Shown piece after piece: positions 41,943 through 49,077 of a stretch of DNA of 64,000 bases. This stretch comes from a virus (lineage: Duplodnaviria; Heunggongvirae; Uroviricota; Caudoviricetes). The DNA is taken from the IMG/VR virus record IMGVR_UViG_3300045988_161152; one strand, given 5' to 3'. The notes below the pieces were generated by a model. The model was not told where the DNA came from. It did not search any database and was given only the letters and a program-made list of their open reading frames with translations. Made by a program: the position numbers and the translations under genes. The number at the start of each line of letters is the position of its first letter. Within the stretch, counting starts at the first letter, position 1.

Positions 41943-42572
41943 ATGAACATACCACCCAGGGCGACTAGGACTGTTTTTTGTGTCGGTAGCGGTCCGTCAC
42001 TCACTCGTGAGGACTGTGCTGCTATAGAAAAAACTGGCTGTTCAATCATCGCGGTTAACAATTCCTGGCAGATGTTCGATGACATTTATGCCTTATACGC
42101 CGGTGATTTGTCATGGTGGAAGCAATACGGATCCACCATACCGGGAGGGAGATTCCGCAAAGTGACAGCCAACCTGGCGGCGGCGAAATCATTTTCGTTG
42201 GAGTACAGGCGATATTGTGGACCGGCGGAAGGGGTAAATAGCGGCGCGCAGGCTATCAGTCTGGCTGCTGAATCAGGGGCTGAAGTAGTGGTATTAGTCG
42301 GCTATGACTGTTCTCTGCAAAACGGCCTTCATTGGCATGGCGCGCACCCTCAAGCACTACGGAATCCAACGCAGGTGTCTATTTCAAAATGGCAACAGCA
42401 GTTCCTGGATACCCGCAAAAAACACGCAGATTTACATATTTTGAATGCAAGTAGGAGCAGTGCAATTCAATGTTTCCCAAGAATAAATTTAGAGGCAGTG
42501 ATCGCGTTATTATCGTCGGCAGTGGCCCAAGCGCCGCAAACTTTGTTGCGCCGCGCGGAGTGCCGATTATAG
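41943..42572 (+). CDS. DUF115/CstII-like (GT-42-like) Rossmann-fold protein, paralog A
   Basis: FCVGSGPSL...IIAVN...VLVGYDCS pattern parallels the N-terminus of CstII-type sialyltransferases. Confidence 0.4.
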   Translation: MNIPPRATRTVFCVGSGPSLTREDCAAIEKTGCSIIAVNNSWQMFDDIYALYAGDLSWWKQYGSTIPGGRFRKVTANLAAAKSFSLEYRRYCGPAEGVNSGAQAISLAAESGAEVVVLVGYDCSLQNGLHWHGAHPQALRNPTQVSISKWQQQFLDTRKKHADLHILNASRSSAIQCFPRINLEAVIALLSSAVAQAPQTLLRRAECRL

Positions 42573-43096
42573 CGGTCAATGGGGCCATCGACTGGCTTAA
42601 CCGCGCTTCTTATTTTTTCACCCTTGATCCATCCCCAGACAATATGCGGCGCGTTGGTCGTGGCCGCCGTCGCCGTGGTGTTTGTTATTGCATGGCACTA
42701 CCCGATGTTAAAGAACGTGAAGTCAGAGATGGCGTTCTGTGCTTCCGTCGTGTGGCTGAACGCGGCATGGAGCCAAAAAATACGAATTCTCCCGAGTGGT
42801 GGGCGTGGCGCTGGTCCGCACATTTCGGCCTTTGCGAAGATGAGAATGAAATTGCCAGCGGCAATAGTGCATATGGTGCTCTGAACCTGGCTTTCCATAT
42901 CGGATTCAAACATGTAGCTCTGGTGGGCGTTGACGCTACGCAAGAACTACGCGTTCACTCCGGCGGCACGCCAAAAAATCTAAGTCACCTGCCTTTGTTA
43001 TTCCAGTCTGCGCGTGAACAGATTGACGTTGTTTCATGCGGGAAAATGGGAGGTATTCCGCAGATGACTCTTAAAGAATGGCTGAAGAATACATGA
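42470..43096 (+). CDS. DUF115/CstII-like (GT-42-like) Rossmann-fold protein, paralog B
   Basis: IIVGSGPSA...IIAVNGA...ALVGVDAT; paralogous to preceding ORF, overlaps it out of frame. Confidence 0.4.
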
Positions 43097-43770
43097 TGGC
43101 ACCCACAATTTATCACCGTATCGACGGTACCAAATACAGGAATGTCTGGGTTGTTGGTGATCTGCATGGTTGCTACACCAGACTGATGTCCGAACTCCAT
43201 CGTGTGGATTTTGACCCGGCGCAGGATTTACTGATATCGGTCGGCGACCTTATCGATCGCGGTACTGAAAATGTCGAATGTCTGGAACTATTGCAGATGC
43301 CCTGGTTCAGGGCAGTGATGGGGAACCATGAGCGGCTGATGATTGATGCGTTAAGTCCAGATGGCAACGTGAATAACTGGCTAATGAATGGCGGACAATG
43401 GTTCTTCATGCTGGACACTGATCAGGAAATATTAGCCTGGGCGCTGGTGGAGCTGGTAAAGCGTCTGCCCTATATCATTGAGCTGAACACCGGGCAAGAA
43501 ACTATCGTTATAGCCCATGCCGACTATCCGGATAATGAATACCAATTCGGTAAGGAGGTACCGCTTTTCAACGTTGTCTGGGCGCGCGAGCGTATCAGTG
43601 ATTCGATGGATGATATTGGTGGCGAAATTTCGGGCGCAGATCGTTTTATCTTTGGCCACACTCCGGTGAAAAGCCCGAAGACATTCTGGAATCAGCAGTA
43701 TATCGACACTGGTGCCGTATTTTGCGGAAACCTGACATTGATGAAAGTGAAAGGTGATGGTGCAGCATGA
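43078..43770 (+). CDS. ppp: Ser/Thr protein phosphatase (lambda-PPase-like metallophosphoesterase)
   Basis: GDLHG, GDLIDRG, GNHE motifs. Confidence 0.8.
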
Positions 43771-44468
43771 AGATTGCTTTAGTTTTTCGCTCTGGTGGTG
43801 ACTATAACGCTTCCGATGTGCAGTGGCTGGTTAATCAACTGCCAAAAGGCTATGAAATTATTTGCCTGACAGACCTGAAGCGTTTACATGTACCTGGCGT
43901 CAAAGTTGTCCCATTGATCAACCAGTGGCAAAAGTGCCGTGGCTGGTGGGCGAAAATCGAGTTGTTCCGACCGGATATAACCGATGATCTGTTCTATCTG
44001 GATTTGGACACGGTTATTGCCGGTGATATACGCCCAATCCTAGAGCATCCACCAACCAGCTTCACCATGCTTAGGGATTTTTACCATCCACAATATCGTG
44101 GCAGCGGTGCCCTGTGGATACCAAATAGTGTTAAAGCGCATATCTGGAGTTCATTCTGGCAAGATCCGGAAGGTTGGATTTCTCGTTGTGTCACTACTGA
44201 GTGCTGGGGTGACCAGGGGTTCTTACGAAAGGTTATGGGCGATGATACACCAGCATTTCAGGATCTGTATCCAGGATGGTTTGTAAGTTACAAGGCCGAT
44301 GTTGTGGAACCTGGTTCAAAATATGCGAGCGCGCGTTACTCCAGGGGGAATGGGGCATTACCAAAAGACTGCCGAATAATCTTTTTCCACGGCAAACCGC
44401 GACCTCGCGAAGTGTCAGAGGATTGGCTTCCCCTTATCAGCTCATTTTTTGAGCGAGAATCAGAATAA
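43767..44468 (+). CDS. putative nucleotide-sugar transferase-like protein
   Basis: 233 aa; DxD-like LDLDTV; weak assignment. Confidence 0.3.
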
Positions 44469-44469
44469 T

Positions 44470-44536
44470 ATTGCTCTAATAATTCCATATTTTTAAAACG
44501 TGATGTACACTCATCACGTTTTTTATTAGAGCAATC
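44470..44536. promoter_or_regulatory. pair of inverted C1 operator-like sites flanking an intrinsic terminator
   Basis: attgctctaataattcc (44470-44486), hairpin AACGTGATG...CATCACGTT + T-run (44497-44525), ttttattagagcaatc (44520-44536). Confidence 0.55.
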
Positions 44537-44769
44537 TACAAGGTGCACTATGTGGCCATTCCGACGGAAATATCACTACTGGCTGATCGCCTTTGTTACG
44601 CCGACCGGCGGTATCAGGCATGTCATCACCAGGTATCGCAACAAGAGACTCACCTTAGCCAGAATTTTACAGGCTGCCATAGGTGAGGGACTGGATACAA
44701 ATTGCGTAGTCCTTCCTCCTTCATACTTAGGAAAAATGACCGAAGCACAAGCTAATACGGAACTTTGAA

Positions 44770-46032
44770 ATGAGCACTTCAGCACAAAACCAATCAATCG
44801 AAAATGTATCTATCCCTGACGTCCTGAATGCCGGTATCCCGGCCATTATCCAGAACATCCGGGCCGCGCAACGCCGCGTTAGTTGTGATGACCTCACAGC
44901 GCGTTTTTTTGATAATGCGGTTCAGTCAGCGGAGATGCTTCACGCACAGCTTATTGATGTTTATAACGCAGAAGCTGATAGCCATAACTCCCTGGTAGAT
45001 GCAGCTGAAAATATGCAGTTGGATCTCGGTCTGAAGGGTAAAGAAATTGAAGAGCTTCAGCTGGAAATTGAACATTTGAAACGCCAGCAACAGGACGCGA
45101 TCGACGATGCGACGCATGACGCCAACCAGCGTGCTGATAATGCCGAACGTATAAGCATTGAGCTGGAAACAAAACTCAATGAAATGACCGCGATGGTTGA
45201 ACTGCGGAACTCACAGATTTCAACGCTAAAATCTCAATATAAAGAGATCATGAAACTTGATCCTTTTAACCTTGAGAAACGCTATAACAAAGCTAAAAGC
45301 GAGCGACAGGAACTGCGTAAGCAGGTCGCCGACCTTAACCAACAGCTCAAAAAAACTATTAAAGATGCAAGCGAAGCGCGCGTGGCATTTGCTAATAAAA
45401 AAGCAGAGGTTACCGCGCTGGTTAATGAGAATGCCAAATTTGCGACGCTCAAGAAGGAAATGTATGGCATTACTGAGCACCGTTTCCCTGCAAGCAAACT
45501 TCATCCGACGTTAGGGCAAATCTCCTTCTTCCCGCGTCTCCTGGCTTATGGGATCTCATCGCCTAAAGAGTTCAATAACGAGCGTCCTTATATCGTTTCT
45601 AAGCTGGACTTTGCTTATCAGTTCTGCTGCGACATGGGCTATGCCATTGATATCCGAATCAACGAATGGTTGATGCCAAACTTCCAGCCGTTGGCAATTT
45701 TCCGCGAGTTCCAGCCGGAAGGTTGGGTAGAGTTCTTCCATGAATTGATCTGTAAAGAGATGGAAAGCCGCCGCCCGGAACTGGTCCGCCGTGTCGAGTG
45801 GGCGCAAGAGGTTATGTTGGCAGATGCAGAGCTGCCGTTCGAACCGGAATTCATTGATGATCTGGCAACTAAAGGGCTGCATACCCTGTTTGATGTGGTT
45901 ACCCGCCGTCATGAGCAGTTGGTTGTCGAATTGGGTTTAGAGGAAACTGCGGCAAGAAGACTTCTCGATGTTTGCTATGCACGTAGCGATGCATGGGAAA
46001 AAGAGAACGGCGGCACTATTTACGTTCGCTGA
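44770..46032 (+). CDS. coiled-coil protein of unknown function
   Basis: 420 aa; long heptad region 44950-45450. Confidence 0.35.
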   Translation: MSTSAQNQSIENVSIPDVLNAGIPAIIQNIRAAQRRVSCDDLTARFFDNAVQSAEMLHAQLIDVYNAEADSHNSLVDAAENMQLDLGLKGKEIEELQLEIEHLKRQQQDAIDDATHDANQRADNAERISIELETKLNEMTAMVELRNSQISTLKSQYKEIMKLDPFNLEKRYNKAKSERQELRKQVADLNQQLKKTIKDASEARVAFANKKAEVTALVNENAKFATLKKEMYGITEHRFPASKLHPTLGQISFFPRLLAYGISSPKEFNNERPYIVSKLDFAYQFCCDMGYAIDIRINEWLMPNFQPLAIFREFQPEGWVEFFHELICKEMESRRPELVRRVEWAQEVMLADAELPFEPEFIDDLATKGLHTLFDVVTRRHEQLVVELGLEETAARRLLDVCYARSDAWEKENGGTIYVR

Positions 46033-46104: not shown

Positions 46105-46611
46105 TTGAGTATTTTCAATAAACACGCACACCAGGAACGTCCGTACATCGTCATAGTAGATATTGATGGGACGATATCAGAGGCAACGGAAGACAGGCTG
46201 CATTTACTTCCACCACCTGGCAAAGGTGCATTAACAGAGCACTGGAACGAGTTTAACCTTGCCTGTGACACTGATGCTCCCATCACTCCAGTTATTGATA
46301 TGGTGCGCCAGTTGTCCGGCATTTACACCCTCTGGTTTGTAACCGGGCGCTGTGAGATAGCCAGGGATAAAACACGAGCCTGGTTGCGTAAGCACGTAAC
46401 AAATGGGGCTGAGCCTTTGCTATCTATGCGTCCTGCCACCGATGACAGAAATGACGGTCCAGCAAAGATTGATCTCCTTAAGAAAATTGGTCTAAGTAAA
46501 ATTGCGTTCGCGCTGGAAGATAAGATTGAAGTGGCGCGTGTATTCAGGAGGCACGGCGTGCTTACGTTAATGGTCAGGGAGTATGAAAACGCGCTTCTCC
46601 ATCAACAATAA
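46105..46611 (+). CDS. HAD-superfamily phosphatase-like protein
   Basis: TTG start with GAGGAGG SD; HAD motif I VIVDIDGT. Confidence 0.5.
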   Translation: MSIFNKHAHQERPYIVIVDIDGTISEATEDRLHLLPPPGKGALTEHWNEFNLACDTDAPITPVIDMVRQLSGIYTLWFVTGRCEIARDKTRAWLRKHVTNGAEPLLSMRPATDDRNDGPAKIDLLKKIGLSKIAFALEDKIEVARVFRRHGVLTLMVREYENALLHQQ

Positions 46612-46792: not shown

Positions 46793-46801
46793 GGGGGATG
46801 C

Positions 46802-47389
46802 ATGAAAGGCGAAGTGAAAGAGCGCGGCATGATTTTTAACGATGAGATGGTCCGGGCAATTCTTGGCGGGAATAAAACACAGACTCGCAGGATTGTTGAA
46901 GAAAAATTCTATGGACGGGCAGTGGCCGCAGAGTTGCTTGCCAAGCATTGTCCATATGGTCAACCGGGCGATCGTATTTGGGTTCGCGAAACCTACCGGG
47001 TACATGGCAAAGCGACGGACGTCGCAACGCTGGTTTATCGCGCAAGCGTGCGTAACTCCTGGACAGAACAAACGCACCGGGTTCCGGTCGAGGTTTGTAA
47101 TAAACCAGTATCAGAAAAGTGGACGCCATCAATTCACATGCCGCGCTGGGCATCGCGCATTCTTCTGGAAATTACCAACGTGCGCGTTGAGCGGTTGAAC
47201 GATATCAGCGAATGCGATGCAAGGGCTGAGGGCGCACCAACAGAATCGACCCTCATTGGCGATAAGCATTACCCAAGTTTCCGTAGCCTATGGAAATCAA
47301 TTTATGGCGAAGATAGTTGGAACGCTAATCCTTGGGTGTGGGTAATCGAGTTTAAGCGTATTCAGGGGGCAACCAGTGAGCAAAATTAA
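46802..47389 (+). CDS. ASCH-domain protein
   Basis: AILGGNKTQTRR (ASCH motif ILxGxKTxExR) and C-terminal WVWVIEFKRI. Confidence 0.5.
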   Translation: MKGEVKERGMIFNDEMVRAILGGNKTQTRRIVEEKFYGRAVAAELLAKHCPYGQPGDRIWVRETYRVHGKATDVATLVYRASVRNSWTEQTHRVPVEVCNKPVSEKWTPSIHMPRWASRILLEITNVRVERLNDISECDARAEGAPTESTLIGDKHYPSFRSLWKSIYGEDSWNANPWVWVIEFKRIQGATSEQN

Positions 47390-48080
47390 CTATCAAGAAC
47401 TGCGCGAGGCGGCGGAACAGGCAACGCAAGATGAATGGGTAGCATATATTTTGCCGGGTCATAACGGCATTTATCCTGCGCGCACGTCTGAGGGTAGGCA
47501 TTGCGGATACTTTATTGACTGGCCTGGCATTGATGGACAAAGGAATGCTGGTGCCAATGCCCGTTATATCGCGGCTATCCCACCAAAAGTTGCGCTGGCG
47601 CTACTGGATAAAATTAAGCACCTGGAGGACACAAATATTGATGCCACATGCCGTATTGCGGAGTTTGAGACTAATCTCGCGGCGCTGGTGGCAGAGAACG
47701 CCGGGCTGAAACACGCAATGGCCGTAACTCTTGAGCATGTGTCGGTCACGGATGCAGGGCAGGCTGGTGTTGCTGCAATGATTATCAACGATGCCCTATA
47801 CCACAGCGAAACTCCAGCTACCGATGCTTTTCTGGCTGAAATTCGTGCGGAAGCACGCAACGAGGGGATTAACTATACCGCCAGCCGTCTTGCTGCTGCG
47901 TTCAATCACGGATTTATCAATAAGTCTTTGCGTGAAGTTTTCGACGTTACACGCATGATTTTGTCAGCGAAAGAAGAGTTGGCTAATGAAGCGCATCCGA
48001 TTGATGGCCTGTCTGGTGAATATGCGGAGAAATCCCTTGAAGAATGGGCGGAACAGATTCGCAAAGGAAGCAGCCAGTGA
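47376..48080 (+). CDS. paralog family member 1 (MSKINYQELREAAEQA...)
   Basis: Shares N-terminus, ATDAFLAEIRAE and C-terminal EEWAEQIRKGSSQ motifs with 48364..49077 and 49375..50064. Confidence 0.45.
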   Translation: MSKINYQELREAAEQATQDEWVAYILPGHNGIYPARTSEGRHCGYFIDWPGIDGQRNAGANARYIAAIPPKVALALLDKIKHLEDTNIDATCRIAEFETNLAALVAENAGLKHAMAVTLEHVSVTDAGQAGVAAMIINDALYHSETPATDAFLAEIRAEARNEGINYTASRLAAAFNHGFINKSLREVFDVTRMILSAKEELANEAHPIDGLSGEYAEKSLEEWAEQIRKGSSQ

Positions 48081-48367
48081 ATATCGACACGACAATAACG
48101 ATCGATACGCTCCTAAATACCGGTCTGGCACTTCTCGGTTGGCTTTACATCATGTCCCGTACATGGCGATGGCTGGGTTCCATTTTCCTAAAACAGTGGA
48201 AAAAACGGCGCAAACAGGAACTACGCCAGAAGGCATTAGAAGCGTTCTATGACGCATTTGAGCTTAGCCGCATTGAACCAGGTACAACAGCCAGGATAGC
48301 GACAAAAGGCGACCTGATGATAGTGATGTTCCGACAGGAGAGAGCAGAGAAAGGGGAATCAGCATGA
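48077..48367 (+). CDS. small membrane protein interleaved between paralogs
   Basis: GTG start overlapping upstream stop (GTGA); TM segment LALLGWLYIMS. Confidence 0.35.
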   Translation: MNIDTTITIDTLLNTGLALLGWLYIMSRTWRWLGSIFLKQWKKRRKQELRQKALEAFYDAFELSRIEPGTTARIATKGDLMIVMFRQERAEKGESA

Positions 48368-49077
48368 AATTTTCCAAATTTTCTGAGTTGGTGAATCGTA
48401 TTTTGTCCAACAACCACAGCCATCGTCGCGATATGGATGTAACAATCGTTGTTCATTCGCCTGGCAGCATTGGTTCAACACCTTCAGTTGAGGTTCAGTC
48501 AATTCACGCTGGTTTTGATTGGGATTCCGGGAAAGTGCTGATTTTCCCATCACAGCCACTGACCACGCTAACACCAGAACAGATTACTGATATCACTGAT
48601 AGTGTGCGCAAAGGTCAGTCTTGGCACGCATATCAGGAATACAAGAAGCATCAAGAGCAGTTGGAAAAATTGTCGATTGAACTGGATGCCGCAAAACAGC
48701 GCATTGCAGAGCTGGATGGTAATCGCACGGCGCTGGCAGTGGAGAATGCCTCAATGAAGCTGTTTATCAGGGGCTGTTGCTACGTGTTTGATGGCCAGCA
48801 GGATGAAATATCTGATGCGTATATCTGCGCAACAGACGGAGGGATGCCGCAAATTCCAGCCACCGACGCTTTCCTGGCTGAAGTTCGGGCGCAGGGGGTG
48901 GATGCTGCTATAGAAGCTGCAAAAAATCTGGTGGCCCAAGAATATGAGTATAAGGATTTCAAAGCGGCGCAGAGTGATTGCTGTATGCACCCTGGTTCAG
49001 ACCGGGTAGGGAAGGTTGAAATGACTGAGTGGTTAGTTGACTTTGCTGCCCAGCTTCGCAAAGGAGGCAACCAGTGA
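48364..49077 (+). CDS. paralog family member 2
   Basis: IPATDAFLAEVRAQG and WLVDFAAQLRKGGNQ shared with members 1 and 3. Confidence 0.45.
   Translation: MKFSKFSELVNRILSNNHSHRRDMDVTIVVHSPGSIGSTPSVEVQSIHAGFDWDSGKVLIFPSQPLTTLTPEQITDITDSVRKGQSWHAYQEYKKHQEQLEKLSIELDAAKQRIAELDGNRTALAVENASMKLFIRGCCYVFDGQQDEISDAYICATDGGMPQIPATDAFLAEVRAQGVDAAIEAAKNLVAQEYEYKDFKAAQSDCCMHPGSDRVGKVEMTEWLVDFAAQLRKGGNQ

Follow-up and report, generated by a model that had tools for sequence, protein, structure and literature searches.

In this work we analysed pmgO, pmgP and pmgQ, three neighbouring genes in a 64,000 nucleotide (nt) stretch of viral DNA (IMG/VR record IMGVR_UViG_3300045988_161152, the whole of which is referred to here as the window), and found that they form a conserved cassette which, with PmgP and PmgQ as its core, bears the signature of a modular pathway of glycan assembly rather than of an assortment of unconnected transferases and phosphatases. 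Our working proposal, to which we give somewhat less than an even chance, is that the three products act as cytoplasmic enzymes which build a glycan in the lytic phase, most likely on Ser/Thr residues of a virion protein. The window is from a P1-like phage: positions 41000-46000 match positions 78682-83682 of Escherichia phage P1 (NC_005856) with 99.2% identity in a single piece without indels, and because the alignment is ungapped, window coordinates are obtained by subtracting 37682 from those of P1. The suggestion of the initial annotation that these might be uncharacterised P1 pmg genes is borne out by this match, and all open reading frames (ORFs) of the region, pmgN, pmgO, pmgP, ppp and pmgQ, are intact in the window (Table 1).

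The genes pmgO and pmgP had been described as overlapping paralogues carrying the motifs of DUF115/CstII-type enzymes. Both sets of motifs are present, as VGSGPSL...IIAVN...VGYDCS in PmgO and as VGSGPSA...IIAVN...VGVDAT in PmgP, and the two genes overlap by 103 nt in different frames. Pairwise BLASTP between the proteins is weak (E 0.003 over 36 residues); comparison by hhalign of the two family profiles, built from alignments of 32 and 33 homologues, respectively, yields a probability of 98.3% and an E-value of 2.3e-14 over 161 columns. This likeness goes far beyond chance, and as judged from the profiles PmgO and PmgP are true but ancient paralogues. Against PF01973 (MptE-like, formerly DUF115) the two proteins score 23.4 and 20.9 bits, respectively, below the gathering cut-off of 34.6 bits. 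Since precomputed PF01973 matches exist on many of the homologues, and one member of the PmgP family (P0257) passes the cut-off with 44.1 bits, membership of PF01973 follows by transitivity at the level of the family.

Structural comparison led to the same fold. The AlphaFold models are confident for both PmgO (predicted local distance difference test score, pLDDT, 87.6; predicted template modelling score, pTM, 0.85) and PmgP (pLDDT 93.6, pTM 0.91), and the leading structural match of each is the glycosyltransferase Maf. Both have the N-terminal GxGPS loop and the Rossmann-like fold known from Maf, MptE and thiamine pyrophosphokinase, and more specifically the GT-A variant-1 fold that lacks a DxD motif and has a lid loop after the GxD strand, as in family GT42. 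A BFVD fold search matched only uncharacterised phage DUF115-like proteins. At the sequence level the relation to GT42 is borderline: the PmgO profile alone detects the family with E-values of 0.4-0.7, and a combined PmgO and PmgP profile run against the PDB places CstII first with a still borderline E of 0.011-0.04, GNGPSL and TSG...GID aligning with the Pmg motifs. When a natural PmgO-PmgP fusion was co-aligned with both families MAFFT stacked the two on its C-terminal half, and the result was kept only as this combined profile. The DUF115/CstII-like assignment is therefore right at the level of the fold.

Invariant in both families are GxGPS, (A/C)VN, a mid-domain Asp, (N)S(G/A), and GxD followed by His-containing loops. 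Maf activity is known to require two acidic residues and a conserved Ser (bioRxiv 10.1101/2020.06.03.131540 and work cited there), and in Maf of M. magneticum the catalytic acidic residues are E324 and D415. The invariant residues D55/S100/D122 of PmgO and D53/S133/D155 of PmgP offer counterparts, with a distance from Ser to Asp of 22 in both proteins (S100-D122 and S133-D155) against 23 in C. botulinum Maf (S334-D357), a comparison that concerns spacing only. Because these invariant acidic and Ser counterparts stand at matching spacing both paralogues look catalytically competent; candidate counterparts of the general-base His of CstII (His188) would be H130/H132 in PmgO and H173 in PmgP.

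Some features of the two proteins should be mentioned in addition. The start of pmgO is ambiguous between the annotated ATG at 41910 and a second in-frame ATG at 41943; the N-termini of homologues fall between the two, and neither is preceded by a well-spaced Shine-Dalgarno sequence, with a GGAGG found 18 nt ahead of 41943. PmgP carries two elements that have no counterpart in PmgO, a poly-Arg loop (42647-42679) in which R61 and R68 are nearly invariant, and a highly conserved Trp/Arg-rich insertion (42788-42820) in which P108, W111 and R114 are invariant and which could be either a membrane-interface or a sugar-stacking element. Two members of the PmgP family, P0337 and P0343, possess a C-terminal second domain (residues ~225-420) which is DUF115-like, was missed by the PmgO model and follows the pattern LG(G/S)A...AAND/AAKG...GGSSGLFAV...CG(V/M)P(M/L)D; this may be a third type of paralogous partner.

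The DxD-containing protein noted after the paralogue pair is PmgQ, and its description as transferase-like is upheld by profile comparison. The window protein itself has no Pfam match and stays under the gathering cut-off of PF01501, and weak Glyco_transf_8 matches are found in 11 of 33 members of its family (best E 0.026). Against the PDB, the family profile matches AgtA, the Skp1 alpha-galactosyltransferase (6mw5), with an E of 1.6e-6 over 157 residues, and GlyE (5gvv) with an E of 0.0025; these are the nearest solved relatives by profile. GlyE acts on a serine-rich repeat adhesin. Residues W60-W61, K63, D79-L-D81, G148-D149, H208-G209, P211 and P213 are invariant in the PmgQ family and Q150 is nearly so. 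PmgQ shares the DxD, GDQ and C-terminal H-x-G-x-(K/R)-P motifs with AgtA and GlyE, while differing from them in its shorter length (233 residues), in an invariant GWWAK motif of its own and in falling under the Pfam GT8 threshold; its DxD, GDQ and H-G-x-P-x-P motifs also align with E. coli WaaJ. On these motifs and profiles PmgQ is predicted to be a GT8-like glycosyltransferase.

To trace how widely the cassette is distributed, loci were taken from species-representative genomes, from viral contigs and by looking up assemblies, and were scanned with hidden Markov models of the three families. A first scan of the viral contigs, with an alignment led by the P1 sequence, gave P1 copies only and was redone with a distant homologue placed first. 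Across ~40 non-redundant loci, PmgP and PmgQ occur together wherever there is enough flanking DNA, and PmgO is present in about three quarters. The loci span Gamma-, Beta- and Alphaproteobacteria, Bacteroidota and Gemmatimonadota, with hosts or bins that include Enterobacterales, Pseudomonas, Zhongshania, Microbulbifer, Methylophilaceae, Brevundimonas, Sinomicrobium (Bacteroidota) and Longimicrobiales, all of those seen being diderms that bear lipopolysaccharide (LPS). A profile search over 1.84 billion representatives returned 551 PmgP-family clusters. The genes of the cassette mostly overlap by a few bases at their start and stop codons, and natural fusions, checked domain by domain, join PmgO to PmgP (P0051, L003 10001-11131), PmgP to PmgQ (P0222 and P0288), PmgQ to PmgP (P0306), PmgQ to PmgP and an S-adenosylmethionine (SAM) methyltransferase (P0271), and a Methyltransf_24 methyltransferase to PmgP (P0308). 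Such fusions are Rosetta-stone evidence that the products belong to one pathway or complex. Further genes are interleaved: a GT-A-like family (F192; 192 residues, DVD motif) in six loci, a GT2-like protein in two, and SAM-dependent and FkbM-type methyltransferases in three each. No flagellar or nonulosonic-acid synthesis genes were recognised in the cassette loci examined.

The position of the cassette within phage genomes was then compared. In HK97-like prophages it lies directly after the major capsid gene and before the head-tail genes (L004 and L114); the same post-capsid placement in L098 is judged by ORF order and size only, L096 is taken to be arranged like L004 because the head genes of the two are similar, and L109 and L111 resemble L004 with a portal gene upstream and no capsid gene identified. 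Elsewhere the cassette follows terminase and portal genes (L112) or a portal and a MuF-like head protein gene (L118), is situated between major head and tape-measure genes (L126 and L101), or immediately precedes terminase (L108). It is thus found in or beside the head module in several lineages which have different portal or capsid families. In lambdoid prophages it is located between lysis genes and terminase (L105) or between antiterminator Q and holin (L106). Chromosomal, non-phage copies were identified in five Pseudescherichia species (L090 3345-13338; also L091-L094) and in Serratia plymuthica (L005 674-3115). In Pseudescherichia the pmgO gene is on the same strand and directly downstream of the gene of a 1166-residue inverse autotransporter (IAT_beta and seven Big_1 domains), the P and Q genes adjoin two further Big_1 proteins, and Big_1/RCC1 surface proteins are interleaved; in S. 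plymuthica pmgO follows two Big_1 genes. These chromosomal copies may glycosylate adhesins.

The mechanism that we propose runs as follows. [quoted passage not shown] Characterised glycosyltransferases of this fold (Maf, CstI/II and the eukaryotic sialyltransferases) use ulosonic acids activated by cytidine monophosphate (CMP) in a metal-independent inverting mechanism (PMC8433944). As the cassettes examined showed no recognisable genes for nonulosonic-acid synthesis, the donor must be derived from the host, and the likely candidate is CMP-Kdo, the sole such donor in E. coli K-12 and presumably common to all the Gram-negative hosts seen. Maf enzymes have been reported to transfer Kdo from host CMP-Kdo onto Ser/Thr of flagellin in E. 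coli (bioRxiv 10.1101/2020.06.03.131540). PmgQ would then add a hexose from a uridine diphosphate-activated donor with retention, Dbn (see below) may add another sugar, and Dbn, the extra GT-A enzymes and the methyltransferases may extend or cap what would be a short glycan, probably of Kdo and hexose. Expression would take place during lytic growth, in P1 upon C1 derepression and downstream of a late promoter, and Ppp and Pap would stand outside the pathway. The acceptor would most likely be Ser/Thr of a structural protein, by analogy with Maf and flagellin and with mycobacteriophage capsid glycosylation; a protein of the virion is favoured because the relatives Maf, AgtA and GlyE modify proteins, because the cassette is embedded in head modules and because the chromosomal copies are linked to adhesins. 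What we observed is the fold, the paralogy, the conserved motifs, the linked and fused genes and where they lie in genomes; from these we infer donor, heteromer and acceptor, the last of which bears most of the uncertainty. In its fully specified form, in which P1 and many other temperate phages with Gram-negative hosts equip their own virion proteins with an O-linked glycan that contains Kdo and is sometimes methyl-capped, by means of PmgQ and of a PmgO/PmgP heteromer drawing on the LPS precursor CMP-Kdo of the host, the proposal is rather unlikely to hold in every detail.

With respect to known systems, the Maf flagellin nonulosonic-acid glycosyltransferases (PF01973/DUF115; PDB 5mu5) are proteins of ~600 residues or more (632-666 for 5mu5) with N- and C-terminal parts around the matched central domain, whereas PmgO (209-220 residues) and PmgP (208) are a paralogous pair of bare domains lacking these flanking regions, which are taken to bind flagellin, with neither nonulosonic-acid biosynthesis genes nearby nor a link to flagellin in the loci examined. 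From Campylobacter CstI/CstII (GT42) they are separated by borderline sequence similarity (E 0.011-0.7) and by the absence of a C-terminal membrane-association region; the acceptor of CstII is lipooligosaccharide, and its donor CMP-Neu5Ac is to our knowledge not made by E. coli K-12. Among the known Kdo-specific enzymes, WaaZ (CAZy GT73), which transfers Kdo III in the LPS core of E. coli and Salmonella, alone shows detectable similarity to the PmgO/PmgP fold family, and it uses the same CMP-Kdo donor that is proposed here. It is a protein of 283 residues acting on lipid A-core, and the WaaZ model (TIGR04437) matches PmgP by the N-terminal motif alone, with 11.9 bits (E 0.1) against a cut-off of 200 bits; K-12 WaaZ reaches an hhalign probability of ~40% with the PmgO and PmgP families, and the match to PF27901 is faint. 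Direct membership of the WaaZ or WaaJ/WaaO families was considered and rejected at hhalign probabilities of 14-40%. Glycosylation of mycobacteriophage virions by phage-encoded glycosyltransferases whose genes lie near structural genes was reportedly described in 2023; that system is like the present one in having phage-encoded cytoplasmic glycosyltransferases in or beside the structural operon which are dispensable for plaques, and differs in enzyme families, in donors and in its hosts, which are of Gram-positive type. We know of no demonstration of comparable virion glycosylation in phages of Gram-negative bacteria.

By genome-wide CRISPR interference (CRISPRi) and the single-gene knockouts cited in the same work, pmgO, pmgP, ppp, pmgQ, dbn and pap are all non-essential (PMC10695390), and 24 of 29 P1 knockout mutants had no plaquing or antirestriction defect (PMC9024508). 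In the former table pmgN is listed as essential by CRISPRi (efficiency of plating 1.4e-2) and non-essential by knockout (PMC10695390); as pmgO-pmgQ are dispensable, a simple polar effect on them does not explain this. The P1 virion proteome gained only PmgC and PmgG as previously unknown proteins, and pmgR, which adjoins the P1 cassette, is a head-completion gene (PMC9024508). In our searches of the literature neither a functional study of pmgO, pmgP or pmgQ nor a paper tying DUF115 to phage biology came up.

Several observations weigh against a virion acceptor. Neither knocking out pmgO, pmgP and pmgQ singly nor silencing them by CRISPRi causes a plaque or antirestriction defect, no P1 glycoprotein has been reported, and glycosylation goes unmentioned in the virion proteome paper. 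The capsid proteins adjacent to the cassette showed no Ser/Thr-rich C-terminal tails, which are reportedly the acceptors in glycosylated mycobacteriophage capsids. Several lambdoid prophages hold the cassette at classic moron sites near lysis genes, and in a phage-like contig of Sinomicrobium (Bacteroidota; L102, 5-12095) the order O-Q-P together with an FkbM methyltransferase is found between a family-A DNA polymerase and ribonucleotide reductase, a context ill-suited to a late or structural role. Finally, WaaZ and, within GT8, WaaJ and WaaO, which are nearest in function among cellular relatives, act on the LPS core, and the Trp/Arg-rich insertion of PmgP would count in the same direction if it is a membrane-interface element. 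The strongest rival is modification of LPS, a target already named in the initial annotation, or of a lipid-linked acceptor: WaaZ-like addition of Kdo and GT8-type addition of hexose would remodel the inner or outer core of the host, and masking or truncation of the terminal-glucose receptor would exclude superinfecting phage or keep progeny off debris. We consider this doubtful, if a serious alternative. WaaZ is the sole Kdo transferase with any similarity, however faint, GT8 includes the core enzymes WaaJ and WaaO with which the PmgQ motifs align, and core assembly is in keeping with glycosyltransferases that act in sequence in the cytoplasm, with a scan of neighbours in which no genes for membrane partners were recognised, and with a chemistry that requires no additional membrane proteins; the Trp/Arg-rich insertion and poly-Arg loop of PmgP could bind membrane or acidic core, every host seen bears LPS, and sites by lysis genes or Q antiterminators are typical of morons. 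However, the WaaZ and WaaJ similarities are well under the family thresholds, the P1 operon is C1-repressed in lysogens, and in HK97-like and other prophages the cassette stands in late head operons, at a time when newly made LPS could replace little of the outer membrane; we also know of no adsorption-exclusion phenotype of P1. LPS keeps some probability as a target, but the genomic contexts favour the virion or a protein. Lysogenic conversion had been put forward together with it; with the operon under C1 repression this is unlikely for P1 itself, and it would be a trait of prophages in which expression is constitutive.

The other alternatives are less probable still. PmgO and PmgP might be ATP-dependent pyrophosphokinases like MptE or thiamine pyrophosphokinase, acting on a small molecule or modified polymer, with PmgQ using or decorating the product. 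The shared fold permits this, but the best structural match of both proteins is the glycosyltransferase Maf, the sequence profiles select CstII rather than kinases, the cassettes examined showed no recognisable partner from pterin, thiamine or nucleotide metabolism, and the obligate partners are glycosyltransferases and sugar-type methyltransferases, in part covalently fused, which fits glycan assembly; we regard this reading as improbable. To a host-takeover effector, which would glycosylate a cytoplasmic or envelope protein of the host to redirect metabolism or blunt defence as Legionella and clostridial GT-A glucosyltransferases do, we assign similarly little weight. GT-A enzymes with a DxD motif are common as effectors, the C1-controlled operon implies early expression in P1, the genes are non-essential in the laboratory, and the chromosomal copies next to adhesins show that the acceptor could also be a non-phage protein; on the other hand PADLOC defence models gave no matches, the embedding in head modules across lineages is unexpected for early takeover genes, and a multi-enzyme glycan with methyl capping is unusual among effectors, which typically add one sugar. 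Modification of nucleic acid, that is glycosylation of phage DNA or tRNA in evasion of restriction, would suit the Bacteroidota phage with cassette and methyltransferase between DNA polymerase and ribonucleotide reductase, and in P1 dbn comes after the ban helicase gene. DNA had also been suggested as a target in the initial annotation, and this we now reject: no synthase for 5-hydroxymethylcytosine or 5-hydroxymethyluracil and no TET/5mYOX or ThyS homologue was recognised in the cassettes examined, and known DNA glycosyltransferases are JGT/TarP-like GT-A or T4-type GT-B enzymes and not DUF115 or GT8 proteins. P1 DNA is moreover readily cut by restriction enzymes and the phage relies on its Dar proteins. 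With antirestriction unchanged in the P1 knockouts (PMC9024508) as well, nucleic acid is very improbable as the acceptor.

The phosphatases had been placed in a glycan system, which our data contradict. Ppp, located directly after the paralogue pair as described, is a calcineurin-like phosphoesterase of the lambda type (PF00149 Metallophos, E 9e-16, 59.3 bits against a cut-off of 21.5; NF008516 for PrpA/PrpB, E 3e-81, below the equivalog cut-off; phrog_246, NinI-like, E 5e-113). It is found between P and Q solely in P1/P7-type phages and is absent from all other cassettes, including those of distant P1-like phage-plasmids with the order PmgM-O-P-Q-PmgR-PmgS, and is probably functionally unrelated to the cassette. 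Pap was correctly recognised as a HAD phosphatase and passes the threshold of HAD_PNKP (PF25109, 44.7 bits against 27.6), with PHROG polynucleotide-kinase families matching at E 1e-55; it is predicted to be a 3'-phosphatase of polynucleotide-kinase type. A role of either as sugar-phosphate phosphatase (e.g., KdsC-like) was rejected, Ppp being of a protein-phosphatase family and missing elsewhere and Pap being PNKP-like.

Dbn may be the GT-B-like protein that was proposed: an EX7E-like motif (ESLGLTVLE) is present, and Glycos_transf_1 is matched with 23.9 bits (E 3.3e-5), under the cut-off of 26.4; no match to PDB sequences was obtained. In S. plymuthica and Buttiauxella the PmgQ-PmgP pairs have a Dbn homologue (~40% identity) 3 kb away, and another is situated beside the cassette in a distant P1-like contig (L121), so that Dbn may belong to the same system as O-P-Q. 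Because homologues begin at Met9 of Dbn, the true start of P1 dbn may be 35001 and not 34977.

The coordinates and control elements of the region are collected in Table 1. In the P1 annotation the pmgN-pmgQ block is bracketed by C1 operators, which fits its designation as an early, C1-controlled operon; a late promoter, LPpmgL, is also present upstream and could drive late transcription from pmgL through pmgQ. The Oppp operator overlaps the predicted sigma-70 promoter region PpmgN, and its sequence in the window, aaattaattagtgcatg, agrees on the reverse strand with the C1 operator consensus at about 13 of 17 positions. The small pmgN product matches phrog_2350 (function unknown category) and is confined to P1-type loci, its gene overlapping the start of pmgO. 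The neighbouring PmgM (41168-41746) is a VRR-NUC nuclease-family protein, Holliday-junction-resolvase-like by PHROG; PmgM and Pap point, by family, to nucleic-acid repair or processing and not to morphogenesis or glycan metabolism. Downstream of pap, positions 46800-48400 of the window depart from the reference P1 order (pmgT) and carry ead/Ea22-like and DUF4752-type ORFs with 90-98% identity to Stx-converting lambdoid phages and to P1 relatives of the P7/RCS47 type; this is a mosaic junction.

Table 1. Features of the pmgN-pmgQ region and associated genes (window coordinates unless a locus is named)
Feature	Description	Position	Strand	Remarks
dbn	Possible GT-B (GT4-like) glycosyltransferase, candidate accessory enzyme	34977..35975	+	
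LPpmgL	Late promoter upstream of pmgL	40813..40831	+	Mapped from P1 annotation 78495-78513
Oppp (Op83)	C1 repressor operator	41753..41769	-	P1 annotation 79435-79451
pmgN	Small ORF, first gene of block	41813..41968	+	GTG start, GGGAGA 7 nt upstream
pmgO	DUF115/Maf/CstII-fold protein, putative CMP-ulosonic-acid transferase	41910 (or 41943)..42572	+	
pmgP	Distant pmgO paralogue, same fold	42470..43096	+	
ppp	Lambda-type Ser/Thr protein phosphatase	43078..43770	+	
pmgQ	Predicted GT8-like GT-A-fold glycosyltransferase, retaining type	43767..44468	+	DxD at 44001-44009
OpmgRa	C1 operator ending the block and opening the separately controlled pmgR-pmgS unit	44470..44486	+	P1 82152-82168
pap	HAD phosphatase gene	46105..46611		PNKP-type 3'-phosphatase by profile
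Dbn homologues	Near the cassette, in unrelated genomic islands	L005 11522-12526; L100 11515-12501; L121 13194-14150		

The predicted enzymology, which had been expected to be the new part, is not wholly new, as coarse labels exist already in RefSeq and PHROGs ("alpha-2,3-sialyltransferase" for PmgO and "glycosyltransferase" for PmgQ). What appears to be new is the fold-level paralogy of PmgO and PmgP, the O-P-Q cassette with its fusions and variable glycosyltransferase and methyltransferase accessories, the exclusion of the phosphatases from it, and its bias toward head modules and adhesin islands. P1, a classic among transducing phages, is also the prototype of the P1-like phage-plasmids, which are widespread, and about a fifth of its genes are without an assigned function, "pmg" (putative morphogenetic) being a placeholder. 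Three orphan genes are here brought into one testable hypothesis by way of a conserved, fusion-linked cassette that prophages from Enterobacterales to Bacteroidota have in common and that is mostly located in head modules. If the hypothesis is true, virion glycosylation would have its first example in phages with Gram-negative hosts, and protein-Kdo linkage its first natural one. Glycosylated virions would bear on immune recognition, adsorption and particle stability of P1, and would affect phage therapy (antibody recognition and clearance), host range and glyco-engineering, for which small soluble Kdo and hexose transferases active in E. coli would serve as tools; should the target be LPS instead, the cassette would represent a new kind of phage-encoded core modification.

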